Origin: Xanthomonas campestris pv. campestris str. ATCC 33913
GTDB taxonomy: Bacteria > Pseudomonadota > Gammaproteobacteria > Xanthomonadales > Xanthomonadaceae
DNA length: 32,000 nt
NCBI RefSeq assembly: GCF_000007145.1
Contig: NC_003902.1
Location: forward strand, 637,436 to 669,435
Reading direction: 5' to 3'
The notes under the pieces are model-generated. The model saw only the letters and a program-made list of their open reading frames with translations, did not search any database and was not told the DNA's origin. Below are positions 2 through 26,681 of this stretch, piece by piece. The position numbers and the translations under genes are program-made. Numbering within the stretch: the first letter of the stretch is position 1; the number at the start of each line of letters is the position of its first letter.

Positions 2-2110
2 AGCTTGCGGGCATTGCGCATGGCGCTGGTTGATCATAAAGGCAGCGTCCAGCGTTTCGATTCAACACTGCCGAACCCTAACCGCACACCGCCACTGTGG
101 CTGAGCGGTCTTAGTGCTGGCCCGCTGCAGCTGCGCCAGAATCCGCAGCAGGGTCAGCTAAACGTCGAGTTCAACCCATGGTTCAACAGCATCATCGGTG
201 GACGTGGCACTGGTAAGTCGTCGTTGGTGGAACTGCTGAGAATCGTGCTTCGTCGAGATGGCGATCTGGCAGGCGAGCGTAGTGGTCCACTAGCGCAGAT
301 CCATGATGTCTTCAGGAATTTCGCGCTTGCCAATGACAAGGACGGCCGTGGCGCCCTGCGTTCCGATACCAAGATCCAGGTCAAACTGAATAAGGATGGG
401 CAAGCGATGGCCGTGGCATGGGACAAGCGTTCCGGCCTGACAACGATCGAAGAACATACTGGTAGCGACTGGTCGCCGGTACCGGAACAAATTGATGACG
501 ACTATGTGCGCAATCGCTTCCCGGTGACGGTACTGAGCCAGAAGCAGATCTATGCGCTTGCTGAACAGCGCGGCTACCTACTCGAGTTGCTCGACCGGCA
601 ACCGCAGGTTGACAAAGCACAATGGCAGCGTCGATTCGACGCGATGCGCCAACGCTTCCTTGGCCTTCGTGCACAAGCGCGGCAACTGGCGCCCGACTTG
701 AGCCAGCGGCCTGCGCTTGAAGCCGAACTGCGTGACACCGAGCGCAAGCTCAAAGCGCTGGAACTGTCGCACCATGCAAGCAGCTTGCAGGCCTATCAGC
801 GTGCGCGGCGCCAACTGAGCGCGCAGCAGAACCTGCTCGCGCAGTGGCAGAGCGACCTCGAAAGCATGCGACCAGTGGTTGAGGATTCCGACCTGTTTCG
901 GCGCATCGAGTTCGAAGGATTCGATCAGGCCACTGGCGATGAAGCCGAGTTCATAGGATTGGTCGAGCAGGTTGAGTCGGAGCTACGCGGCCACTACGAG
1001 CAGATTCGGACTGCCGTGTCGCAGATCGAGGCTACCCTGGCGACGACACCTGCCCGTTTCGCCGCCTTACGCTTGCAGGTTGCGATTACGCAAGCGCAGG
1101 CCGACTATCAGGCGCTGCTGGAGAGACTGAAGTCTCAGGGAGTGGAATCGCCCGATCAATACGCGGCACTGGTCGCCCGGAGGGACGAACTGCAGAAGGA
1201 GCTAAAGCGTCTGGATGCAGGTCTTCATGAACAGGCAGGCTACATACAGCAAGCAGAGCAGGTGCTTGAGGAATTGACGCAGCTGCGCCATGAGATTAGC
1301 GAAAGCCGGAAAGATTTCATCACAGAGATCAACCAGCGGGCAGGGAATAGAATTCGTCTGAGTCTGTCGCGTTTCGGTACGCCGGAAATTGCCGAAACTC
1401 GCTTCCGTGAGTTGATCAAACAACCCACAGCGTTCGCCGAGGATATCTACGAAGTGCTGGAGGGCGGCGCCAGACGCGGTGTGCTGCACCGGTTGTTCAG
1501 CGCATCTGTCGCGGACTTCGAGAACGAGCTCTCTGCTTTGAAGAAAGAGATCCTACGCATGCGGCAGGAACCTGCCAAGCATGAGGACCTGCTCGGCGAA
1601 AAAGTTAACAAACGACTACGAACGCACATCGAAACCAGACTTGGTGAGCTGGAGATTGATGAATTGCTGACGTGGTTTCCGGATGACGGTCTCGATCTTA
1701 TGTTCACGCAGAGCGGAAAATCGCGATCAGTGGACGGAGCTTCCGCAGGCCAGAAAAGCGCTGCTGTGTTGTCTCTACTGCTGGCGTTTGGCGGAGAGCC
1801 GTTGATCGTGGATCAGCCTGAAGACGATCTGGACAACGCAATGGTGATGGATCTGGTCGTCAGCCAGATACGCGCCAACAAGACGCATCGGCAGTTGATC
1901 GTTGTTACCCATAATCCAAATGTGGTGGTCAACGGGGACGCTGAATGGGTAATACCAATGCATTTCCATAAAGGTCAAATCGATGTGGATGCGACTGGCT
2001 TGGGTGCAGTATCTGAACTTGGCACCCGCAAGGCGATCTGCACGATCATGGAAGGCGGTGAAAACGCGCTACGCATGCGTTACAAGAAGATCTTGGAAAA
2101 TATCGCATAG
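2..2110 (+). CDS. SMC/RecF-like ABC-type ATPase with long coiled-coil insert (possibly 5'-partial; ORF is open to the window edge)
   Basis: Walker A GGRGTGKSS about 65 aa into the visible ORF. Q-loop-like VLSQKQ. About 350 aa of heptad-like E/Q/R/L-rich sequence. Signature-like ASAGQKSAA, Walker B/D-loop LIVDQPEDDLD and H-loop VVTHNPNVVVNGDAEW near the C-terminus. No in-frame stop between nt 2 and the listed TTG at 5. GC about 50-57% in counted 60-nt lines versus about 65% in neighbours. Confidence 0.8.
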   Translation, partial: SLRALRMALVDHKGSVQRFDSTLPNPNRTPPLWLSGLSAGPLQLRQNPQQGQLNVEFNPWFNSIIGGRGTGKSSLVELLRIVLRRDGDLAGERSGPLAQIHDVFRNFALANDKDGRGALRSDTKIQVKLNKDGQAMAVAWDKRSGLTTIEEHTGSDWSPVPEQIDDDYVRNRFPVTVLSQKQIYALAEQRGYLLELLDRQPQVDKAQWQRRFDAMRQRFLGLRAQARQLAPDLSQRPALEAELRDTERKLKALELSHHASSLQAYQRARRQLSAQQNLLAQWQSDLESMRPVVEDSDLFRRIEFEGFDQATGDEAEFIGLVEQVESELRGHYEQIRTAVSQIEATLATTPARFAALRLQVAITQAQADYQALLERLKSQGVESPDQYAALVARRDELQKELKRLDAGLHEQAGYIQQAEQVLEELTQLRHEISESRKDFITEINQRAGNRIRLSLSRFGTPEIAETRFRELIKQPTAFAEDIYEVLEGGARRGVLHRLFSASVADFENELSALKKEILRMRQEPAKHEDLLGEKVNKRLRTHIETRLGELEIDELLTWFPDDGLDLMFTQSGKSRSVDGASAGQKSAAVLSLLLAFGGEPLIVDQPEDDLDNAMVMDLVVSQIRANKTHRQLIVVTHNPNVVVNGDAEWVIPMHFHKGQIDVDATGLGAVSELGTRKAICTIMEGGENALRMRYKKILENIA

Positions 2111-2147
2111 AAGTTTCAACCTGCACGTAATTCTAAAGAGAACACCG

Positions 2148-3034
2148 ATGCGTCGTCTGACCGCTCAGGATTTCCACCCCGGTCTGCTTGCGCTGTACGA
2201 CGGGTACGTGCACGGCAAACTCAGTCGGCGCGATTTTCTCGATCGCGCCGCTGCGTTCGCGGTGGCCGGGTTGAGTGCGGCGGCGATCCTGGAATCGCTG
2301 AGCCCCAACTACGCGCTCGCCACGCAGGTGGAGTTCACCGACCCGGACATCGTGGCCGAGTACATCACCTATCCCTCGCCCAACGGCCATGGCCAGGTGC
2401 GCGGCTATCTGGTGCGTCCGGCCAAGGTCACCGGTGCGGTGCCCGGCGTGGTGGTGGCGCACGAAAACCGTGGTTTGAATCCGTATATCGAAGACGTGGC
2501 GCGGCGCGTGGCCAAAGCGGGTTTCGTCGCGTTGGCACCGGATGGCCTGAGTTCGGTCGGTGGGTATCCGGCAACGACGAAAAGGGGCGCGCGCTGCAGG
2601 CGCAGGTCGACCCGACCAAGCTGATGAACGACTTCTTCGCCGCAGTGGAATTTTTGATGAGCCGCGAACGCACCACCGGCAAGGTCGGCATCACCGGCTT
2701 CTGCTATGGCGGCGGCGTGGCTAATGCGGCGGCGGTGGCGTATCCCGAGCTTGCAGCGGCGGTGCCGTTCTATGGCCGTCAGCCCACCGATGCCGAGGTC
2801 GCCCGCATCCGCGCGCCCCTGCTGCTGCATTACGCCGCGCAAGACGAGCGCGTCAATGCCGGCTGGCCCGCGTATGAGGCCGCGCTCAAGGCGCAGCACA
2901 CCGTCTATCAGGCCTATGTGTATCCGGGCACCAATCACGGCTTTCATAACGATTCCACATCGCGTTACGACAAGGCGGCCGCGACGTTGGCCTGGGATCG
3001 CACCATCGAATGGTTTCGGCGACACCTGGTGTGA
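2148..3034 (+). pseudogene. Dienelactone hydrolase family protein with Tat-type signal, interrupted by a 1-nt deletion frameshift near 2569-2571
   Basis: Frame-0 part reads MRRLTAQDF...SRRDFLDRAAAFAVAGL...VVVAHENRGLNPYIEDVARRVAKAGFVALAPDGLSSVGGYP. Frame-2 reads straight on as GNDEKGRALQAQVDPTKLMNDFF...GFCYGG...NHGFHN. The two share g2570, so CCGGC appears where CCGGGC is expected. Nucleophile and His motifs are both present. Confidence 0.8.
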
Positions 3035-3180
3035 GTGGGTCGGTGCGGTCGTGGTGGTGTCGCCGCTTGCGCGCCATTGGCGCGCAAGCCTCAGTGCGCC
3101 CTGACGCTAGCCCTGGCCGGGGCGCGCAGCGGGGTCGGGATGATCGCGTGTGGCGAAGTGCTCGTGTTGGCTGTTGCAGC

Positions 3181-3219
3181 ACACAAAAGACCCCGCCTTT
3201 CGGCGGGGTCTTTTGTGTG
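3181..3219. terminator. Bidirectional rho-independent terminator between convergent genes
   Basis: acacaaaagaccccgcc-tttc-ggcggggtcttttgtgt: perfect 17-bp stem with A/T runs on both sides. Lies between the dienelactone hydrolase (+) and the effector gene (-). Confidence 0.85.
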
Positions 3220-3273
3220 CACACCACTACTGCGCAGGCGGGTGCTGGCAGCCCATTGCCGTTGTTTGCAATG

Positions 3274-5388
3274 TCAGGGCGAACCCGCTGTGCGCAGTGT
3301 TGCGTCATCGCTGAGTGGGTACGGTTGCGTAATCGCTTCCGGTTCCGGGGAGGCGGTCTGTACCGCGACCTCGGCGGCCTCGTCCGGCTCGGTGACTTCG
3401 GAGATTTCGGTGATCGTGACGCTATTGCCGGGCTTGGTCTCCGCACCCGCTCCCGCGCCCTTAATCACTTGCAGGACGCTATCTTCAACTATCTGCGCGT
3501 ACTTCTGCGCCTGTTCCGGCGGCAGACTTGCCACATACTTCGCCGTGTCTTGTACGGTCTGGATCAGCTCTTCGGGCGAGGACGGCATGCAGGTTGCGAG
3601 CGGGGTCCCATCGGGTCCCTTGAACACCCGCATGACCTGACGCCCGCCCCAGTTCATCGCCAGTTCCGCGCCGCGCGCCATCGGGCCAGGCATCGTCATC
3701 GACATCAGCGACATGATCGCGCCAGCGTAGTAGGGCGATGCGGACGATGCTTCGATCAGACTCTTGTCTGCGAACGTCTTGGACAGTTTTTCCACACCCA
3801 GCGCCAGCGCCATGACCATGCTGCCGGAGCACATGGCCTTGAAGCGCTCCATCGTGTCCTGGCGGGTCGCGTGCTTGTTCAACGCCGACTGCATCATCAC
3901 GGTCGTCACCACGGCCGTGTCGGCCAGCAGGTCCACCGTGCCGATCCGATCCGGCTGGATCAGGTAGACGGTCAGCCCCGTCACGCCGGCAGCCAGCAAT
4001 GCCAATGCCAATTTGGAAGAGAAATCCTGGTTGGTCAGTTGGCGCGGGATGGTGGCTGGCTGGTCCTGGTCGACTTGCAGCGCAGTGCTCAGGCGCTTGG
4101 TGCACTGATCGAGCGTCTCCAGCAGATGCGTGCATTGCGCATTGAGCGTGCGGGTGAGTTCGTGCCCTGTGCCGGGTTCGGTGAAGTCTCGGCGCGCTTT
4201 TCGAAAAGCGTCGCGGCCAAGCTCCAGAGCGGCGCAGATCTCGTTGAGTTGCGTGCGCAGTTCCTGGCTGATCTGTCCGGGCGTCAGGCGCGCACGCAAC
4301 CGCTGAGCCTGCGTCTGAAGGCCGGCACGGTCCGCGATACCCGCGCCCAGGTGGGAGACGCCATGCTGCATTCGATTGCCGAGCGCGTTGAGGCTGTTCC
4401 AGAGAAAGGGCGTCAGCACCATCGCTGTGCAGGCCGTGGATGCGGCCGCGGCAAATCCCAGGTTGTTTTCCACCGCTTCGGCCTGCTGTCGCATGGACGG
4501 GTTGCCGAATTTCTTTGGCAGTTCGGTGGCGAGAAACAATCCGTTGAGCAGGATGGCGTAGAAATGCATTTCGTTGGCTTCGCGCCCCAGCTGACCGCCC
4601 ATCAGCGGGAACGGAAGCCCATCGGCGGTGGGGCGCAGCGCCGATGCCGATAGACTCATCACGCCCTTGGTTGCTGCAGCAATGGAATAGGCAAAAGTCT
4701 TGGCTTGGTTGGCGAGCAGCGGGCTGGGCACTACCAGGGGCCAGAGATTGACCAGATTGGCCAGCGACTTCAGCGCCCTCCCTGCTGCAGGTGTCCCATG
4801 CTCCAGCGGCTGCAGCGCATTTTCCACGGCTTCGGCGTCGTTGAGCAATTGCTGACAAAAGCGTGTTTCCAGACCGGTTGCAGATTCGATGGCGCCGCGT
4901 AGCTGCGTGATCTGCTGGCGGCACGCGGCCAGGCTGTGCGGCGCGACCTGTTCCGGATCGGTGTGGCGCACCATTTGCAGAAATGCGGGATCGTCTGCAT
5001 GCATCTGCAGCATGGTGCGCAGATCCGCCAGCGACCAGAGATCAGAAGCGGCCTTGGACACTGCAGCGGATGCATGCTGGACGCCGCTTGTCAGCGCGGA
5101 GTTCGCGCGCGCGGTAAGCGTTTTGGCAGTGGATAGAGCAGTCGCCCGTGCCGAGTGTGACGCCTGCGGTGCGGGCGAGGATGGCTCCACGGGCGACGTT
5201 GGCGCGGAACTGGCAGACGAAGTGCGTGAGCGGCTGCGCGGGACAAGTGCCGATAGCGCGGGGTTGACCGGGGGCTGTGTCGGCGATGCGGCAGGTTGCA
5301 GTTCCACGATACCTTCATCGTGCTTGCGTGCGTTCTGCAACTCGGCTGGCGAGGACGGGCCTGCCAACTGCGCTTTCTTGATCTCCAT
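3274..5388 (-). CDS. xopX: XopX-like type III effector candidate, paralog A (704 aa)
   Basis: Start placed at MEIKK (ATG 5388), preceded by GGAGAT at 5-nt spacing. The listed GTG at 5418 is not conserved in frame with copy B. S/P-rich N-terminus with no Sec signal. Very Met-rich C-terminal half (e.g. AIMSLMSMTMPGPMARGAELAMNW). From memory, XopX is a roughly 74-kDa Met-rich Xanthomonas effector; the name was not checked against a database. Confidence 0.6.
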   Translation of the reverse strand: MEIKKAQLAGPSSPAELQNARKHDEGIVELQPAASPTQPPVNPALSALVPRSRSRTSSASSAPTSPVEPSSPAPQASHSARATALSTAKTLTARANSALTSGVQHASAAVSKAASDLWSLADLRTMLQMHADDPAFLQMVRHTDPEQVAPHSLAACRQQITQLRGAIESATGLETRFCQQLLNDAEAVENALQPLEHGTPAAGRALKSLANLVNLWPLVVPSPLLANQAKTFAYSIAAATKGVMSLSASALRPTADGLPFPLMGGQLGREANEMHFYAILLNGLFLATELPKKFGNPSMRQQAEAVENNLGFAAAASTACTAMVLTPFLWNSLNALGNRMQHGVSHLGAGIADRAGLQTQAQRLRARLTPGQISQELRTQLNEICAALELGRDAFRKARRDFTEPGTGHELTRTLNAQCTHLLETLDQCTKRLSTALQVDQDQPATIPRQLTNQDFSSKLALALLAAGVTGLTVYLIQPDRIGTVDLLADTAVVTTVMMQSALNKHATRQDTMERFKAMCSGSMVMALALGVEKLSKTFADKSLIEASSASPYYAGAIMSLMSMTMPGPMARGAELAMNWGGRQVMRVFKGPDGTPLATCMPSSPEELIQTVQDTAKYVASLPPEQAQKYAQIVEDSVLQVIKGAGAGAETKPGNSVTITEISEVTEPDEAAEVAVQTASPEPEAITQPYPLSDDATLRTAGSP

Positions 5389-11125: not shown

Positions 11126-12484
11126 TCAGGCAAGGCGTGATGCGGTTCGACGCAAGCTTGCCAACGCGCGCGTGGCAATGCCGCGCATCTGTTCGCTCAG
11201 AGTGTCGTCGTCGATCGCATGTTGCCAGAACTGCTCGGCCATTCCGGCAGCGCGCCGCCATTGGGCGAATTGATCCACGGTGGGCGGCGGAATCTCGATG
11301 TCTCTGTGCACGACTTCGCCACTGGATGCCGGGCGCAGCGCCATCGGCAACATGTCGTACACCGGGGCAAGCTGCAGGGGCAGGGTATCGGCGAGTACCA
11401 GTGCGGCATTGCCCAGGTGCATGTCGGTATTGCCGATGAGGGTCCCGAACCAGCTGATCACTTCCAGGCGCTCGGCGTCTTCCGGGCTCAGCCAGCCATC
11501 GCGTTTGAGTAGTGGAGCAAGTGTTCGCCAGGTGCTGACGTTTGCGTCGCCATAAAAGGACGCAAACAGCGACATCAGCGAGACGAATCCGCGTCGGCCT
11601 AACGCAGCAGTCCGATCGAAGCGTGTCGATTCGAGAAAGACGCGCCCGCCTGCCTGCAGTACCTGTGTTGCCGCAGCAGGGATGCCGGCGGCAACGAGAA
11701 TCTGGCTGGCCAACCATTCCATCTGTAAAAGATCCGCCCAGCGCCGGCCGGTGGGTTGATCGATCTGATCGGTGAACTTGACGATCACGGGTCGGTATGC
11801 TTCGCGTTCCTTCAGCACTGCGGTGAACTTCGGCTGTTTGCCGGCGGCAGACGAGCCAACGGCCTCGCCGCGCAATGCAGCTTCGGCGCGACTGAGATAT
11901 TCCTCGGTGCGTGCCTGCGTGGCGATAACTTCAGGGTGTTCGATCGCCGCCAAAGCCAGAGCCAGTGCGCGCTCGCCGATCAGCAGATCGCCAGGCTGGT
12001 CGTGACCAACCGACAGCATGGCCACAAGGTTGTCCCTGGGCGACCACAGCGCCAAGTTGTCCGGAAGGCGCAACGGCGCAGAAATACGGTGTGCCAGGTT
12101 GCGACCAAGAAATCCCTGCGGCCTTTGGTCGTCTATAAACCAGGGCAGCGATGCGAACACGCCGGTGTCCAATGGCGAATGCAATAGAACGGGGTTGTCC
12201 TGCAAAAGTTCGACAAAGAAGTGGTCGTCGTGGAGTGCCAATAGTTGGCCCAGCGGTATGACGCGGGCATCGTGATCAATCCGATAGAGCGGCCACATAC
12301 GCTCGCCCCGCAGTTCACCGGTGGCCGCGTAGCCGGTGCTGCGCGCCCTGCCATAACGCAGCACCGCAGGGCCTGCATCTGCGACTAGGCGAGACAGAGT
12401 CGGCCGGCTCACGCCCACGCGCACCGCCAACTCGGCCCCACGCATGGGGCCGTTGACGCGCAGCGTGGTGATCAGGCGCTCCAC
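11126..12484 (-). CDS. HipA-family Ser/Thr kinase with fused N-terminal HTH domain (YjjJ/HipH-type, monocistronic)
   Basis: N-terminus MRGAELAVRVGVSRPTLSRLVADAG is HTH-like. Gly-rich loop GSSAAGKQPKF (compare HipA SxAGxQxK). Catalytic GNTDMHLGNAAL (DxHxxN). PVYDMLPM (Mg-binding Asp). GTG start as listed, with an alternative ATG 13 codons in. Confidence 0.75.
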   Translation of the reverse strand: MERLITTLRVNGPMRGAELAVRVGVSRPTLSRLVADAGPAVLRYGRARSTGYAATGELRGERMWPLYRIDHDARVIPLGQLLALHDDHFFVELLQDNPVLLHSPLDTGVFASLPWFIDDQRPQGFLGRNLAHRISAPLRLPDNLALWSPRDNLVAMLSVGHDQPGDLLIGERALALALAAIEHPEVIATQARTEEYLSRAEAALRGEAVGSSAAGKQPKFTAVLKEREAYRPVIVKFTDQIDQPTGRRWADLLQMEWLASQILVAAGIPAAATQVLQAGGRVFLESTRFDRTAALGRRGFVSLMSLFASFYGDANVSTWRTLAPLLKRDGWLSPEDAERLEVISWFGTLIGNTDMHLGNAALVLADTLPLQLAPVYDMLPMALRPASSGEVVHRDIEIPPPTVDQFAQWRRAAGMAEQFWQHAIDDDTLSEQMRGIATRALASLRRTASRLA

Positions 12485-12621: not shown

Positions 12622-12888
12622 ATGAAGAAGAGTCGTTTCACCACCGAGCAGATCATCGGATTCATCAAGCAGGCGGATGCCGGGATGGCGGTGGCTGAGC
12701 TGTGCCGCCAGCACGGTTTCAGCCCGGCCAGCTTCTACCAGTGGCGGGCCAAGTACGGCGGCATGGAGGCCGAAGACGCGAAGCGCCTGAAGGAGCTGGA
12801 GCAGGAGAACAACCGCCTGAAGCGGTTGCTGGCCGAGGCGCACCTGGACATCGAGGCGCTGAAGGTCGGGTTCGGGGTAAAACGCTAG
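12622..12888 (+). CDS. IS3-family transposase OrfA (HTH, leucine zipper)
   Basis: MKKSRFTTEQIIGFIKQADAGMAVAELCRQHGFSPASFYQWRAKYGGMEAEDAKRLKELEQENNRLKRLLAEAHLDIEALK is the classic IS3 OrfA pattern. Confidence 0.9.
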   Translation: MKKSRFTTEQIIGFIKQADAGMAVAELCRQHGFSPASFYQWRAKYGGMEAEDAKRLKELEQENNRLKRLLAEAHLDIEALKVGFGVKR

Positions 12889-13244
12889 CCCCGCAACGCA
12901 AGCGCGAGGCAATCCGGCGCATGTGCGAGCTGACGTCGATCAGCGAGCGCCGGGCTTGTCGCCTTGCGGGGATCTCCCGCGATGCTTTCCGCCACGCGCC
13001 GACACCCACGCCGGCGACGCAAACCCTGTCGGCCAGACTGGTGGAACTGGCGCAGGCGCGTCGCCGCTTCGGCTATCGCCGCCTGCACGACCTGCTGCGC
13101 CCGGAGTTTCCGCAGGTGAACCATAAGAAGATCTACCGTCTGTACCGCGAGGCGAAGCTGAGCGTGCGCCGGCGCAAGAAGGCCAAGTTCCCGGCGGCAC
13201 AGCGGCAGCCGTTACGGCCAGCGCGGCATCCCAACGAGGTAATC
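12876..13244 (+). pseudogene. IS3-family transposase OrfB, N-terminal fragment only (DDE domain missing)
   Basis: The -1 frame relative to orfA reads GKTLAPQRKREAIRRMCELTSISERRACRLAGISRDAF...YRRLHDLLRPEFPQVNHKKIYRLYREAKLSVRRRKK. It is cut at the IS5 inverted repeat. Confidence 0.8.
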
Positions 13245-14752
13245 AGTCGCCCCTGAAAAACCCCCTTCAAGCACCAAGTGTCATCGGCGACAGCGGCACG
13301 GCGCTAAAGGATGGCCATCCCATCGCCCGCATCCAGGCACGCAAAAACGCGATCCAGCGCAGCAGCCAGCGCAGGTTGTAGCCGGCGGCGCAGCCGAGTA
13401 CGTGCAGCGCATCGCCTTGTGCACCTTTCAGCCTGCAGCGACGCAACCTGCAGTCGTCTTTCAGATGTCCGATCACCGGTTCCACCGCCTGCCGTCGTTT
13501 GATCCAGCGCCATTGCCGTCGCGTCAGCGTCTTGGCCTTGCCACGATGGAGCACCTGCACGCCATCGACCTCGCGCCCGCGATAGCCCAGGTCCACGATC
13601 GCCACCGTCGGTTCTACGCTCAGATCCTGCAGCAACCCGCGTGTCTGCTCCAGCTGCTCGGCCAAGGTGTCGCCGTCGTACGGGTTGCCCGGGAAGCTAC
13701 GCGCACCCACGACCAATCCCTTGCAGGCGGTGACCGCAATGCCGACCTTGACGCCGAATTCGTACGCTTGACGCGCCTTGCCCTTACCGATGCATTCCAC
13801 TTCCGGGGCATGCAATGCGTACAGTTTTTGTTTGTCCTTCGGACGCTGCGTGTACAGCCGTTGCGCACGTTCCAGCCAGACCGCGATGCGCTCGCGCACG
13901 CCGGGTTCCACCTGGTCCAGCTTGCGCGCGATATCGCGCAACACCCGCCCCAAGACCGTGCGTTGACGTCGCAGCACGCGCTGCATGCGCTTGAACTGGC
14001 GTGCATGCGCATAGCGGCCCGCCTTGCGGCTCAGGGCCGGACCTTGCCGTGCGTAGCTCTGCCGCAACCCGATGCCGTAACGCTTGGCCAGCAGCACCAG
14101 TTTCTTGCGTGCCACCTCCAGCAACCGACTATCGGTCGGATAGGCAATCGCCTTTTCCTGCACCGTGGTGTCCACGATCACCCGCGACAACTCGCGTGCG
14201 TCCACCGCCTGCATGGCATGTGCAGCGTTGATGGTGTGTGCCAGCAACTCTTCCATCCCCGCTTCGTCAAGCCGCTGACGCCAGCGCGTCAGCGAGCTGG
14301 CATCGCACGGCAAGCGCGTCTGGAACACGACCTCGCCAGTGAAAAACTGCCAATACGGATTTTCCAGCCAACGCTCGCACACCGCCTCATCGGACAGGTC
14401 GTAGGCGTGTTTGAGGTAGAGCAAACCGGCGATCAGCCGCACCGGCAATGCCGGCCGACCGCCACCAGCCTGGGTGGCCGGCAAGCGCGATGAAAGTGCT
14501 TGCTCCAACGCCGTCCACGGCATCCGTTGGCTCAGCTGCGCCAGCGGATGCCGCAGATCGATCTGGTTCTCCAGGCGCGAACGAAACAACTCCTCGGCAG
14601 GCATGTGCTCGGCAGCAGGACGGCGTGTATGCATGAGTGGAAATTGCCAGAAACCAGCCTTCAGCGTAGCGAAAACTGGTAGTTCTGGCACGCCACTGCA
14701 GACATCAAGGCCTTGCGGGCGTTGGGTGATTGGGGGTTTTTCAGGGGCGACT
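13245..14752 (-). mobile_element. Complete IS5-family insertion sequence (1508 bp) with 21-bp perfect terminal inverted repeats
   Basis: AGTCGCCCCTGAAAAACCCCC at 13245-13265 is the exact reverse complement of 14732-14752. One transposase gene lies inside. No matching direct repeat flanks the ends. Confidence 0.85.
13267..14634 (-). CDS. IS5-family DDE transposase (455 aa)
   Basis: Start moved to MHTRRPAAEHMPAEELFRSRLENQIDLRHPL so that it lies inside the IS. InsH-type N-terminal domain (GRPALPVRLIAGLLYLKHAYDLSDEAVCERWLENPYWQFF). DDE region (VIVDTTVQEKAIAYPTDSRLL, VAIVDLGYRG, IGHLKDDCRLRRCRLKG). Confidence 0.9.
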   Translation of the reverse strand: MHTRRPAAEHMPAEELFRSRLENQIDLRHPLAQLSQRMPWTALEQALSSRLPATQAGGGRPALPVRLIAGLLYLKHAYDLSDEAVCERWLENPYWQFFTGEVVFQTRLPCDASSLTRWRQRLDEAGMEELLAHTINAAHAMQAVDARELSRVIVDTTVQEKAIAYPTDSRLLEVARKKLVLLAKRYGIGLRQSYARQGPALSRKAGRYAHARQFKRMQRVLRRQRTVLGRVLRDIARKLDQVEPGVRERIAVWLERAQRLYTQRPKDKQKLYALHAPEVECIGKGKARQAYEFGVKVGIAVTACKGLVVGARSFPGNPYDGDTLAEQLEQTRGLLQDLSVEPTVAIVDLGYRGREVDGVQVLHRGKAKTLTRRQWRWIKRRQAVEPVIGHLKDDCRLRRCRLKGAQGDALHVLGCAAGYNLRWLLRWIAFLRAWMRAMGWPSFSAVPLSPMTLGA

Positions 14753-15342: not shown

Positions 15343-15383
15343 TGTTACTGCCAGCCCTCTCGGCGCTGGCAGTAACAATTTTC
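15343..15383 (+). terminator. Rho-independent terminator after the membrane protein gene
   Basis: tgttactgccagc-cctctcggc-gctggcagtaaca (13-bp stem) followed by attttc. Confidence 0.7.
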
Positions 15384-15395
15384 AAGTATGCCTTA

Positions 15396-15971
15396 TTAAT
15401 TAAATGCTTCCGCAGCTTTAAGCATCTGTGCGTCTGCTGGCGCTATGCGAATGGCACTTAGGCAATCTGGGGAGGTTTCTGGGAACGAAAACTCCATCTT
15501 CTCCTGATTTTTAATAACGGCCAGAGTCAATGTTTCTGAACTACTCTGTCCTCTCGGAATATTTGAAATCAGATAATTCGGATATCGAATCTTGAAGTCC
15601 TGACGAGAAACGCAGGAACCTTCCAGATTGAGTAGGACTGACTCGATCTTTTTCTTATCGGCCGATATGAAGATGGAAGAGTCCTTAGCAGTTAGGTGAT
15701 CACCTAATTTTAATGTTCCTCCGCTGACGTTGTACATGCCTTCGTTTTCTGAATTTGGCGTCGAAATTCTGGCTCCAGGCCATGAATTAATAAATTCAGA
15801 GGGTGATTTTTTGAGATTTCTCGAAATTTCTTCGGCTAGTTCAAACGCACGAGCAGCATCCGCTGCTGTCGCTGCTGAAATTTTAGTTGCATATGCTGAA
15901 GGTGCAATCAAAGCAGCAAGGAGTGTTATTATAAAGTAGGGATATGATGATCTGTTAAGGAAGTTTGTCAT
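15396..15971 (-). CDS. Secreted/periplasmic hypothetical protein (191 aa), candidate inhibitor or immunity partner of the upstream metallopeptidase
   Basis: Start placed at ATG 15971, with GGAGAG 6 nt upstream inside the preceding gene. Signal peptide MTNFLNRSSYPYFIITLLAALIAPSAYA|TK. Overlaps the upstream stop codon (15955-15957). About 40% GC. Confidence 0.65.
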   Translation of the reverse strand: MTNFLNRSSYPYFIITLLAALIAPSAYATKISAATAADAARAFELAEEISRNLKKSPSEFINSWPGARISTPNSENEGMYNVSGGTLKLGDHLTAKDSSIFISADKKKIESVLLNLEGSCVSRQDFKIRYPNYLISNIPRGQSSSETLTLAVIKNQEKMEFSFPETSPDCLSAIRIAPADAQMLKAAEAFN

Positions 15972-16560
15972 ACTGCTCTCCATAATATACGTTATAGTTC
16001 TGTCCTGTGGTTGAGGTTATGTTATTTGCGCAGAACGATTTTCCAACATTTGATGCGACATTAGGTCCTCCAGCAGAGTAAATCCCGAAAAGCTGATCGG
16101 GATTTGATGCTGCAAGCTTAATGTCTATGCTATTTTGAGTGGAAATCGATATTTCATTCCTTGCAACTATGTTATTTGTTACGGCAAGTCCTTCCATCTT
16201 GCATGCTTCATCTATATATGCTTGCCGAGTCGTTTTGGCAAACGAATAGTTGAATTTCACATGGCCAAACTCATGGGCTAGGACTGAGACTGTAAAATAC
16301 ATGCCCGGCATATCTTGACTCGCGCAGCTATAATTGCGGATATATACAATTTTATTTGGCATGTCCGTATAGCTGGCCGAGCCGTAAGCGATCTTAAAAG
16401 TAGTGTTGGTGTTTATTTGTCCGGTAAGTGTCGTTGATTGGGAAGTTATGAAGTCAATGCAGGTTCCAAGTCCTGTGGTAGGGACAGTTGTCTGAGCCTG
16501 AGTTCCAAAGGATACGAGTGCGAGAAGAAATATCGCCATTGCATGGCATCTTATGTGCAT
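15955..16560 (-). CDS. Secreted small HExxH zinc metallopeptidase-like protein (201 aa)
   Basis: SD GGAGAT 5 nt before the ATG. Signal peptide ...MAIFLLALVSFGTQA|QTT. HEFGH motif with a downstream acidic candidate third ligand (YIDEACKMEG). Four Cys residues. About 40% GC in a 65% GC context. Confidence 0.7.
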   Translation of the reverse strand: MHIRCHAMAIFLLALVSFGTQAQTTVPTTGLGTCIDFITSQSTTLTGQINTNTTFKIAYGSASYTDMPNKIVYIRNYSCASQDMPGMYFTVSVLAHEFGHVKFNYSFAKTTRQAYIDEACKMEGLAVTNNIVARNEISISTQNSIDIKLAASNPDQLFGIYSAGGPNVASNVGKSFCANNITSTTGQNYNVYYGEQYDKLP

Positions 16561-16660
16561 AATATCTCCATATATATGTGAGGAAATCGCGCCAATTTCT
16601 ACGCGATGTGCCGCAACAGAATCCTAAACGCAGAAGCCCCTTAGGACTGAGGGTTTGATC

Positions 16661-16690
16661 AAAAAAACAGGCCCTCGCGGGCCTGTTTTT
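16661..16690. terminator. Bidirectional rho-independent terminator downstream of ompW
   Basis: aaaaaaacaggccc-tcgc-gggcctgttttt. Confidence 0.8.
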
Positions 16691-16714
16691 AAGGTGCCTA
16701 GCCAATCGGTGTGC

Positions 16715-26254: not shown

Positions 26255-26681
26255 GGGGAGCTCCGTATTCTTGGTAGGCAGGCGATCGGGCCTGTGGCGC
26301 GCACTATCGGTAAAAGCGCGTCCACCAAAAGTGAAAGCGTTGTGGTACCGAAGTGAAGAACTTCCTAGCAATCGGACAAAACGGTCCGCTTGGCCTGTCC
26401 CGCGACATCCGGGTCAATACGCACCATTGTGGTGTCTGAGTGCTGTCACACCGCCGCGGAGGTCGGCGGATTGGACCGGAGGTGGGAAAGTGGGGGTGCG
26501 ACAAAATGCGTCATAAAAGCAGGAGCCCCGGTCTCCCAGGGCTCCTAGACGCAGCCTGCAGTGGAACCTTTCGACGAGGATGTGCAGGCCTCGCAGGTTC
26601 TGACAGCCGGTTTGTGGCAAAGTTCCTCCCGTTGCGTGGCACCGGCATGGTGCGTCGCAATAAGTTCATGACTTCTCCCGG

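Follow-up and report, generated by a model that had tools for sequence, protein, structure and literature searches.

Periplasm-acting type VI secretion system (T6SS) metallopeptidases have been described in Pseudomonas aeruginosa, as the C-terminal domain of VgrG2b (VgrG2b C-ter) with PA0261, and in Acinetobacter baylyi, as Tpe1/Tpi1 (Wood et al. 2019, PMC6899460). The immunity proteins of these VgrG2b/Tpe systems need a signal peptide, bind the toxin directly, and depend on DsbA and conserved cysteines; they are periplasmic as soluble, lipoprotein, or membrane-anchored forms (PMC6899460). A further report, on VgrG2 of Enterobacter bugandensis E104107, noted in silico a “novel putative gluzincin metallopeptidase domain,” distinct from that of VgrG2b, at residues 689-757 of an 861-amino-acid (aa) protein (PMC10763514). 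The general kind, a T6SS metallopeptidase effector with a periplasmic immunity protein, is already known. Here, we analyzed a cassette of two overlapping genes, encoding a putative peptidase and its partner, at positions 15384-16660 of a 32,000-nucleotide (nt) stretch of Xanthomonas campestris pv. campestris str. ATCC 33913 (the whole stretch is called the window). Homology showed that the two predicted proteins belong to a conserved two-gene module, the other members of which appear to be T6SS spike or tip warheads with a periplasm-targeted protein encoded downstream. We favor, with a probability of about 0.5, the reading of the cassette as an interbacterial T6SS-type metallopeptidase effector-immunity module in a Sec-exported version.

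An earlier reading of the window from its letters (the original prediction) had described a 201-aa protein with a signal peptide, a HEFGH motif, and four Cys residues, followed by a second gene that overlaps the stop of the first, has its own GGAGAG Shine-Dalgarno sequence, and starts with a signal peptide ending in AYA↓TK. Both descriptions agreed with what we found. The features of the two genes are as follows (arrows mark predicted cleavage sites).

15955..16560, minus strand: peptidase gene, 201 aa (AAM39854.1 / Q8PD10 of X. campestris pv. campestris), predicted gluzincin-like HExxH domain with Sec signal
16495..16560, minus strand: predicted Sec signal peptide of the peptidase, residues 1-22, MHIRCHAMAIFLLALVSFGTQA↓Q
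16261..16275, minus strand: HEFGH zinc-binding/catalytic motif (H96, E97, H100), residues 96-100, from the family alignment
16192..16194, minus strand: E123, candidate third zinc ligand, in the (D/x)EGxA segment, +23 from H100, from conservation
15396..15971, minus strand: partner gene, 191 aa (AAM39853.1 / Q8PD11, annotated as 195 aa from an upstream ATG at 15983)
15976..15981, minus strand: GGAGAG Shine-Dalgarno sequence of the partner gene, lying in the final codons of the peptidase gene and spaced 4 nt from the ATG at 15971
15888..15971, minus strand: predicted Sec signal peptide of the partner, residues 1-28, ...LIAPSAYA↓TK, from the translation

The peptidase start has GGAG 5 nt before its ATG, and the N-terminus of the translation shows a Sec-type n/h/c layout (MHIRCH / AMAIFLLALVSFG / TQA↓Q); both signal peptides were called by eye from such a layout. 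The four Cys residues of the mature peptidase are C34, C79, C120, and C177, and its motif stands in the context HEFGHVKFNYS, without a third His. The start of the partner overlaps the end of the peptidase gene by 17 nt. Public annotations are split on the starts (window 16540-16560 and 15971-15983), giving the peptidase 201 or 194 aa and the partner 195 or 191 aa. The ribosome-binding sites favor the longer peptidase (201 aa) and the shorter partner (191 aa), the upstream ATG of the 195-aa version being without one. Q8PD10 and Q8PD11 are annotated as “hypothetical” or “Secreted protein,” and no mention of the Xanthomonas genes was found in the literature under their locus tags or UniProt identifiers.

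Neither protein had a match above threshold in Pfam, NCBIfam, or the PDB sequences, which bears out the original statement that neither belongs to a family that could be named. The sole Pfam match of the peptidase was to DUF2268 and fell below threshold (expectation [E] value of 0.014; 15.4 bits versus a cut-off of 23.6). Word-indexed searches returned only Xanthomonas-level relatives and a few metagenome contigs for the peptidase and only Xanthomonas-level relatives for the partner, to which a broad partner alignment added three metagenome proteins. An exhaustive profile search with the peptidase detected 276 proteins at an E value of ≤1e-3, 89 of them at ≤1e-10. These make up an uncurated family defined by our profile A1/A3. 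In most members, the domain lies at the C-terminus of a longer protein. The carriers include VgrG proteins with Phage_GPD, Phage_base_V, Gp5_trimer_C, T6SS_Vgr, and DUF2345 as N-terminal parts, proteins with PAAR and Tox-PAAR-like domains, and, once, a TraG_N protein. VgrG and PAAR members matched with E values of 1e-16 to 1e-23 over query residues ~25-199. Named sources include Variovorax, Enterobacter asburiae, and Paraburkholderia megapolitana, where all are annotated only as “Vgr family protein.” NCBIfam recognized only the VgrG, PAAR, and TraG parts of the T6SS members, and the family profile gave only a chance HExxH match, to Ste24p, among PDB sequences (E value of 0.68).

In an alignment of 31 family sequences, H96, E97, G99, H100, Y189, and Y193 are invariant, and E123-G124-x-A126, an N-terminal (T)GLG-x-x-x-D, and a C-terminal YYG are conserved in at least 90%. 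The H/E/H residues together with E123 are kept in 105 of 109 full-length domains. The original prediction had placed a possible third ligand in a Glu-containing segment about 20 residues downstream of the motif. This stands for E123 at +23, conserved in at least 90% of the family, and fails for the nearer E118, which is not conserved. We infer that E123 is the third zinc ligand, and HExxH with a conserved Glu at +23 in an ExxA context reads as a gluzincin signature. The window peptidase shows the whole-domain match, the TGLG, the HExGH, the (D)EGxA Glu, and the C-terminal YxxYYG of the family. A T6SS carrier or T6SS locus is absent; in place of an N-terminal carrier, the protein has a Sec signal, and the neighbors of the cassette are ompW and a DUF1453 gene. 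By its sequence, we place the window peptidase as a Sec-type branch of a T6SS-associated family.

The cysteines follow the same division. Of 20 members with a Sec-like N-terminus, 16 have the C120 and C177 pair, versus 1 of 76 N-extended members; folding of the Sec-type members alone in an oxidizing compartment would give such a pattern. All four Cys residues are found in free-standing Sec-type proteins.

Two groups of unusual members were also seen. Four of them (P0078, P0105, P0132, and P0150) have an N-terminus resembling a Flp/TadE-type prepilin leader (e.g., ...RRGLSTLEYALLFVVICVGSLA) before the peptidase domain. In Pfam, these prepilin-like members gave only a sub-threshold match to DUF4244 (E value of 0.0014); P0078 comes from a metagenome-assembled genome of Polyangiales. 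Such leaders hint at delivery by a Tad-like apparatus. The 1871-aa protein P0065 has two tandem peptidase domains, the first with HEVGH and the second degenerate, with a nearby HENWH and a K in the aligned column of the catalytic E.

Further evidence comes from the partner. A hidden Markov model of the Xanthomonas partners alone (profile A2) matched the ~165-aa C-terminal extension in all ten family proteins that have one and matched no others (E values of 5e-9 to 4e-4 among 161 sequences). These proteins have the architecture of a Rosetta-stone fusion: signal peptide, peptidase, a ~30-aa linker, and partner domain. A partner-family gene also lies downstream of the peptidase gene in all nine non-Xanthomonas loci, adjacent to it in eight (L numbers are our labels for loci).

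L011/L012 and L013: Sec-type pairs, metagenomes; partner adjacent downstream
L022: Sec-type pair, Stenotrophomonas; partner adjacent downstream
L001: VgrG, Variovorax; partner adjacent (hhalign probability of 95.7%, E value of 1e-8)
L016: VgrG, metagenome; partner adjacent downstream
L020: VgrG, Enterobacter; partner adjacent downstream
L021: VgrG, Paraburkholderia; partner adjacent downstream
L017/L018: PAAR; partner adjacent downstream
L019: TraG_N; partner two genes further down

A broad family profile matched the downstream genes at 1e-29 to 1e-57, and the Stenotrophomonas one at 1.6e-6; this profile includes some of the tested genes, which match by construction. Profile A2 matched every downstream gene except the Stenotrophomonas one, which was found by the broad profile only. 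Among 19 aligned partner members, two Cys residues and a Y(P)...PRG...F-x-F...C-L pattern are conserved, with C120, F163, and C170 invariant. The Xanthomonas partner shares only 15-22% identity with its T6SS-linked and fused relatives. Partner-family proteins carry lipoboxes in L016 (LLGC), L019 (LAGC), and L021 (LVGC, given an upstream in-frame start) and Sec or membrane-anchor N-termini in L011, L013, L017, L020, and L022. In the T6SS loci, the predicted partner gene occupies the position of an immunity gene. The pair was syntenic in every locus examined, which answers in the affirmative the earlier proposal that the two genes be checked for co-occurrence across taxa. The cassettes have a lower guanine-plus-cytosine (GC) content than their surroundings in 8 of 10 loci of other hosts; low-GC cassettes are typical of mobile toxin-immunity modules.

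In the JGI metagenome contig L019, the peptidase domain lies inside a conjugative TraG_N protein (1044-4370; residues ~672-863 of 1108), and the partner-family protein is a lipoprotein with the LAGC lipobox (L019:5210-5770). The TraG_N carrier and partner of this contig therefore tie the module to a type IV/conjugation mating-pair protein as well. In the Variovorax locus L001, the partner gene is followed by a DcrB/DUF1795-family gene and then by a PAAR-Rhs effector gene. We considered the DcrB-family gene as a second immunity gene and rejected it, as hhalign shows no relation to the partner. We take it to belong to the Eag chaperone family (PF08786/DUF1795) and to serve the downstream PAAR-Rhs effector.

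For the Xanthomonas partner itself, the AlphaFold model had a predicted local distance difference test score (pLDDT) of 71. Foldseek comparison of this model to the PDB gave weak matches, with template modeling (TM) scores of 0.23-0.48, to DUF4309/YjgB, the SAV1118 C-domain, and LppA, and lower-ranked matches to DcrB and BLIP-like proteins. These are suggestive of a small alpha/beta periplasmic fold; we draw no functional conclusion from them.

The cassette stands out from the window by its composition. The computed GC content of 15384-16660 is 42.6%, compared to 63.7% in the remaining 32-kb window. Windows of equal length elsewhere have a mean of 0.639 (standard deviation [SD], 0.030; minimum, 0.545), placing this islet ~7 SD lower, and it is the lowest-GC stretch of its length in the window. 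The GC content at third codon positions is 0.41 in the peptidase gene and 0.37 in the partner gene versus 0.82 in ompW and 0.77 in the DUF1453 gene of the window. The islet consists of two overlapping minus-strand open reading frames (ORFs) enclosed by two terminator hairpins.

16661..16691, minus strand: intrinsic terminator hairpin of ompW with U-run (hairpin at 16668-16691), upstream cassette boundary; about -21 kcal/mol, z score about -4.7, then UUUUUUU
15343..15378, no strand assigned: strong hairpin between the convergent partner and DUF1453 genes, downstream cassette boundary; -27 to -29 kcal/mol on either strand, z score -5.8
16561..16660, minus strand: leader/promoter region of the bicistron, 100 nt, with a GGAG Shine-Dalgarno sequence at 16566-16569; read from the sequence

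An islet in sharp contrast to its flanks, with host terminators at its edges, had been reported from counts by eye. The computed values uphold the contrast, and both hairpins fold well. The further claim, that the islet was acquired recently, did not hold. Among the matches listed, the same pair is found at the same ompW/DUF1453 site, and equally AT-rich, in X. hortorum, X. sp. Leaf148, and X. vasicola. We calculated synonymous divergence (dS) and the ratio of nonsynonymous to synonymous divergence (dN/dS) between the window and three species (L008-L010).

Peptidase gene: dS 0.15-0.17; dN/dS 0.22-0.29
Partner gene: dS 0.35-0.40; dN/dS 0.14-0.21
ompW: dS 0.34-0.37; dN/dS 0.07-0.12
DUF1453 gene: dS 0.19-0.81; dN/dS 0.08-0.10

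The dS of the cassette genes is comparable to that of the flanking genes, and both cassette genes are under purifying selection. Given the flank-like dS, the purifying selection, and the shared site, the cassette therefore predates the divergence of these species. It appears from these comparisons to have been inherited vertically with its foreign composition kept. Of the marks of a recent genomic island, we found the atypical composition; synteny, flank-like dS, and the lack of mobility signatures speak against one, and no flanking direct repeats, tRNA, or integrase were found around the cassette. Between Xanthomonas species, the partner is 80-87% identical versus 91-94% for the peptidase, and the partner thus evolves faster. 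Over the same species pairs, the dS of the peptidase gene is less than half of that of the overlapping partner gene; recombination or constraint on the peptidase mRNA is a possible cause. An identical peptidase sequence is present in hundreds of X. campestris assemblies, and shortened copies occur in X. theicola (155 aa) and X. campestris pv. raphani (80 aa).

Two insertion sequence (IS) elements near the islet had also been cited in favor of recent transfer.

13245-14752: complete IS5-family element (DUF772 and DDE_Tnp_1 transposase) with perfect 21-nt inverted repeats, 0.6 kb from the islet
12702-13256, plus strand: truncated IS3-type OrfA (HTH_21), abutting the IS5 element

Both are indeed there. 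However, they are strain-specific and irrelevant to the islet: the IS5 element is present at this site in L005 and L007 and is unrelated to the islet because it is absent from the sibling strains L002 and L004. We considered the nearby IS elements as mobilizers of the islet and rejected them on account of the sibling strains without them. Beyond the IS5 element, the window departs from the sibling strains, with HipA_C and IS3 OrfA genes instead of metQ/ABC genes, which suggests an IS-mediated rearrangement. The HipA_C-domain kinase ORF (toxin-antitoxin type; 11126-12484, minus strand) lies beside the truncated IS3-type OrfA. Elsewhere in the window, the Xanthomonas small RNA sX12 (Rfam RF02231) was found at 26515-26592 on the minus strand, at 106.6 bits barely over the gathering score of 106.

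To our knowledge, X. campestris pv. campestris has no T6SS. The peptidase, if used against other cells, must therefore exit by another route, of which type II secretion or outer membrane vesicles would be the likely ones. In the mechanism that we propose, Sec would carry both Xanthomonas proteins over the inner membrane, and they would fold in the oxidizing periplasm, forming two disulfides in the peptidase and one in the partner. Translational coupling would yield roughly equal amounts of the two, and the partner would bind and block the peptidase in the periplasm, sparing the envelope of the producer. Once outside the producer, the peptidase would attack a periplasmic or cell envelope target of other bacteria. 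In the fused forms, the system would be unchanged except that the inhibitor stays attached in the manner of a C-terminal pro-domain. We base this mechanism on the precedents of VgrG2b C-ter/PA0261 and Tpe1/Tpi1 (PMC6899460). A wider proposal is more tentative, and we rate its chances as appreciably lower: that this T6SS toxin family also exists in T6SS-independent forms (a Sec pair and a chain with a tethered pro-inhibitor), that its modules can be converted to, or were derived from, secreted zymogen-like bacteriocins, and that a plant pathogen lacking a T6SS competes with one by way of type II secretion or vesicles.

Several observations weigh against a Sec-exported toxin with its immunity protein. 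In two assemblies, L003 (GCA_900002245.1) and L006 (GCA_000321125.4), IS sequence breaks the partner while the peptidase is 100% identical to that of the window. The interruption is at about codon 11 in L003 (L003:8607-8900, window ~15940) and at about codon 156 in L006 (L006:9060-9350, window ~15505). Both insertions are assembly N-gaps flanked by IS ends, and one end in L006 is GGGGGTTTTTCAGGGGCGACT, the inverted repeat of the IS5 element of the window. A strain with the peptidase gene can thus do without an intact partner gene; in these strains, either the peptidase is not expressed, or it is harmless to the producer, or the strains compensate. The 175-aa mature peptidase has no receptor-binding or translocation domain for entering another Gram-negative cell. 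Covalent fusions of toxin and immunity protein are unusual, and the fused domain could equally be an accessory or regulatory one or a pro-inhibitor. The partner gene of Variovorax atrisoli (L001:9178-9624) encodes no signal peptide, and no upstream extension of its ORF is possible. A consensus scan of 16561..16660 found no sigma-70-like site, and no promoter was identified there. Finally, the AlphaFold2 model of the peptidase, from an alignment of eight sequences, was unusable (pLDDT of 41.5).

Some of these observations suit the main rival better, in which the pair forms a two-part enzyme of the envelope that has been domesticated. The peptidase would then have a housekeeping or conditional job in the periplasm of its producer, such as trimming peptidoglycan or lipoproteins, with the partner as its regulatory or substrate-targeting subunit. 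Ten single Sec-exported chains with both domains are natural for an enzyme with its accessory and odd for a toxin with its antidote, and the loss of the partner to IS insertion with the peptidase left intact agrees with this, as does vertical inheritance at one site under purifying selection in four species. The TraG_N fusion, too, suggests local cell wall remodeling. We nevertheless judge an envelope enzyme unlikely. For the greater part, the family is carried by dedicated T6SS delivery domains, and the partner gene occupies the canonical place of an immunity gene. The distribution is patchy, with atypical GC content in several hosts, and the restriction of close homologues to Xanthomonas runs contrary to a core function.

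Ranked below the envelope enzyme, and in our estimate improbable, is an orphan-immunity island, in which the partner is kept against incoming VgrG- or PAAR-borne peptidases and the peptidase gene is a passenger. Against it, the peptidase is itself under purifying selection and keeps all of its catalytic residues, and the gene broken by IS sequence in two assemblies is that of the partner rather than of the peptidase. The setting would suit such an island. In T6SS loci, the gene at the immunity position comes from the partner family, Stenotrophomonas rhizophila kills X. campestris pv. campestris with its T6SS (PMC10777753), and this pathovar is absent from the T6SS-bearing Xanthomonadales tabulated in PMC6653060. 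However, the low identity of the partner to T6SS-linked or fused members makes cross-protection doubtful.

About equally improbable is a secreted protease directed at the plant, that is, a type II substrate that acts on apoplast or cell wall proteins of the host, with the partner as a periplasmic guard. Sec signals and cysteine patterns of the exported type in both proteins, and close homologues only in plant-associated Xanthomonas, would be in line with this. The UniProt label “Secreted protein” on both also fits, reflecting signal peptide prediction only. Against it, the relatives in Enterobacter, Variovorax, and Paraburkholderia, which are non-plant bacteria, are on antibacterial delivery systems with periplasmic immunity-type partners, and no literature on these genes was found. 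Last, that the islet is recently acquired functionless foreign DNA or a decaying remnant might be guessed from 42.6% GC within a 64% GC genome, the IS elements nearby, and the truncated copies, but it is highly improbable and already contradicted by the same locus with flank-like dS and dN/dS of 0.14-0.29 in four species, by the identical peptidase in hundreds of assemblies, and by the strain specificity of the IS element.

Returning to the reading as a Sec-exported effector-immunity module, several things are new. A separate effector family and its cognate immunity family are defined, neither of which is in Pfam or NCBIfam, and toxin and immunity domains are found in both split and fused versions with Sec signals. 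T6SS effector-immunity pairs are usually seen as bound to the injection machinery; here, the domains stand behind ordinary Sec signals. The split pair and the fusion in Xanthomonas and Stenotrophomonas offer a system for studying changes in the delivery route of toxins and for asking if an immunity protein can double as a pro-domain. Many VgrG and PAAR C-termini labeled only “Vgr family protein” become annotatable among the 276 detected members, and two conserved “hypothetical” or “secreted” proteins of a major crop pathogen gain a testable function. In Xanthomonas, the cassette has long been resident and conserved and has stayed AT-rich, unameliorated at 42% GC in a 64% GC genome across several species.

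Taken together, how does this locus compare to what has been described? The original prediction had pointed to serralysin and Inh, and the likeness is one of logic only, a secreted zinc protease with a co-encoded periplasmic inhibitor. Serralysins are metzincins of ~50 kDa with HExxHxxGxxH and a Met-turn and use type I secretion, whereas the window protein has HEFGHVKFNYS and a Sec signal. Neither protein matched M10 or Inh in Pfam or the PDB. With no HExxHxxGxxH in the peptidase and no similarity of the partner to Inh, we abandoned the analogy. The Pfam polymorphic-toxin peptidases Tox-MPTase2-5 gave no matches, and no family member reached any gathering score. The putative metallopeptidase family DUF6782 came nearest, with sub-threshold matches over the HExxH in several relatives (best E value of 1.2e-5; 22-23.1 bits versus a cut-off of 27). 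Other zincin models with sub-threshold matches in the HExxH region of relatives were Peptidase_M78 and DUF2268.

The VgrG2b/Tpe systems are closer. Both systems have small HExxH domains, of gluzincin type there and putatively so here, that are carried on VgrG or PAAR or are free-standing, and in both, a small downstream gene encodes a periplasm-facing protein with conserved cysteines. They differ in the third ligand, at +44 (E983) in VgrG2b versus the +23 candidate here, and in the N-terminus of the Xanthomonas copy, where a Sec signal takes the place of a T6SS carrier; fusions of toxin and partner also occur here. None of 31 family members matched PF13699/DUF4157 at an E value of ≤1, and PDB entry 6H56 was matched neither by the family profile nor by a VgrG member. 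We considered membership in the VgrG2b/DUF4157 family and rejected it for the missing DUF4157 and 6H56 matches and the different ligand spacing.

A further likeness is to VgrG2 of E. bugandensis. Our family includes an 846-aa VgrG of E. asburiae (P0069) with HESGH at 734, a location that corresponds to that of the E. bugandensis domain, encoded in a T6SS cluster, and the E. bugandensis domain is probably a T6SS member of the present family, matched by its description and not by its sequence. The site had been put forward as an undescribed module. This claim gives way for the T6SS member, which was probably noted in that report, and it stands for the immunity family, the Sec-signal members, and the fusions, which are not described there (PMC10763514). 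The proposal of an exported mini-metallopeptidase toxin with a periplasmic inhibitor or immunity partner is itself strongly supported by homology, through the VgrG and PAAR carriers of the one protein and the immunity position of the other.

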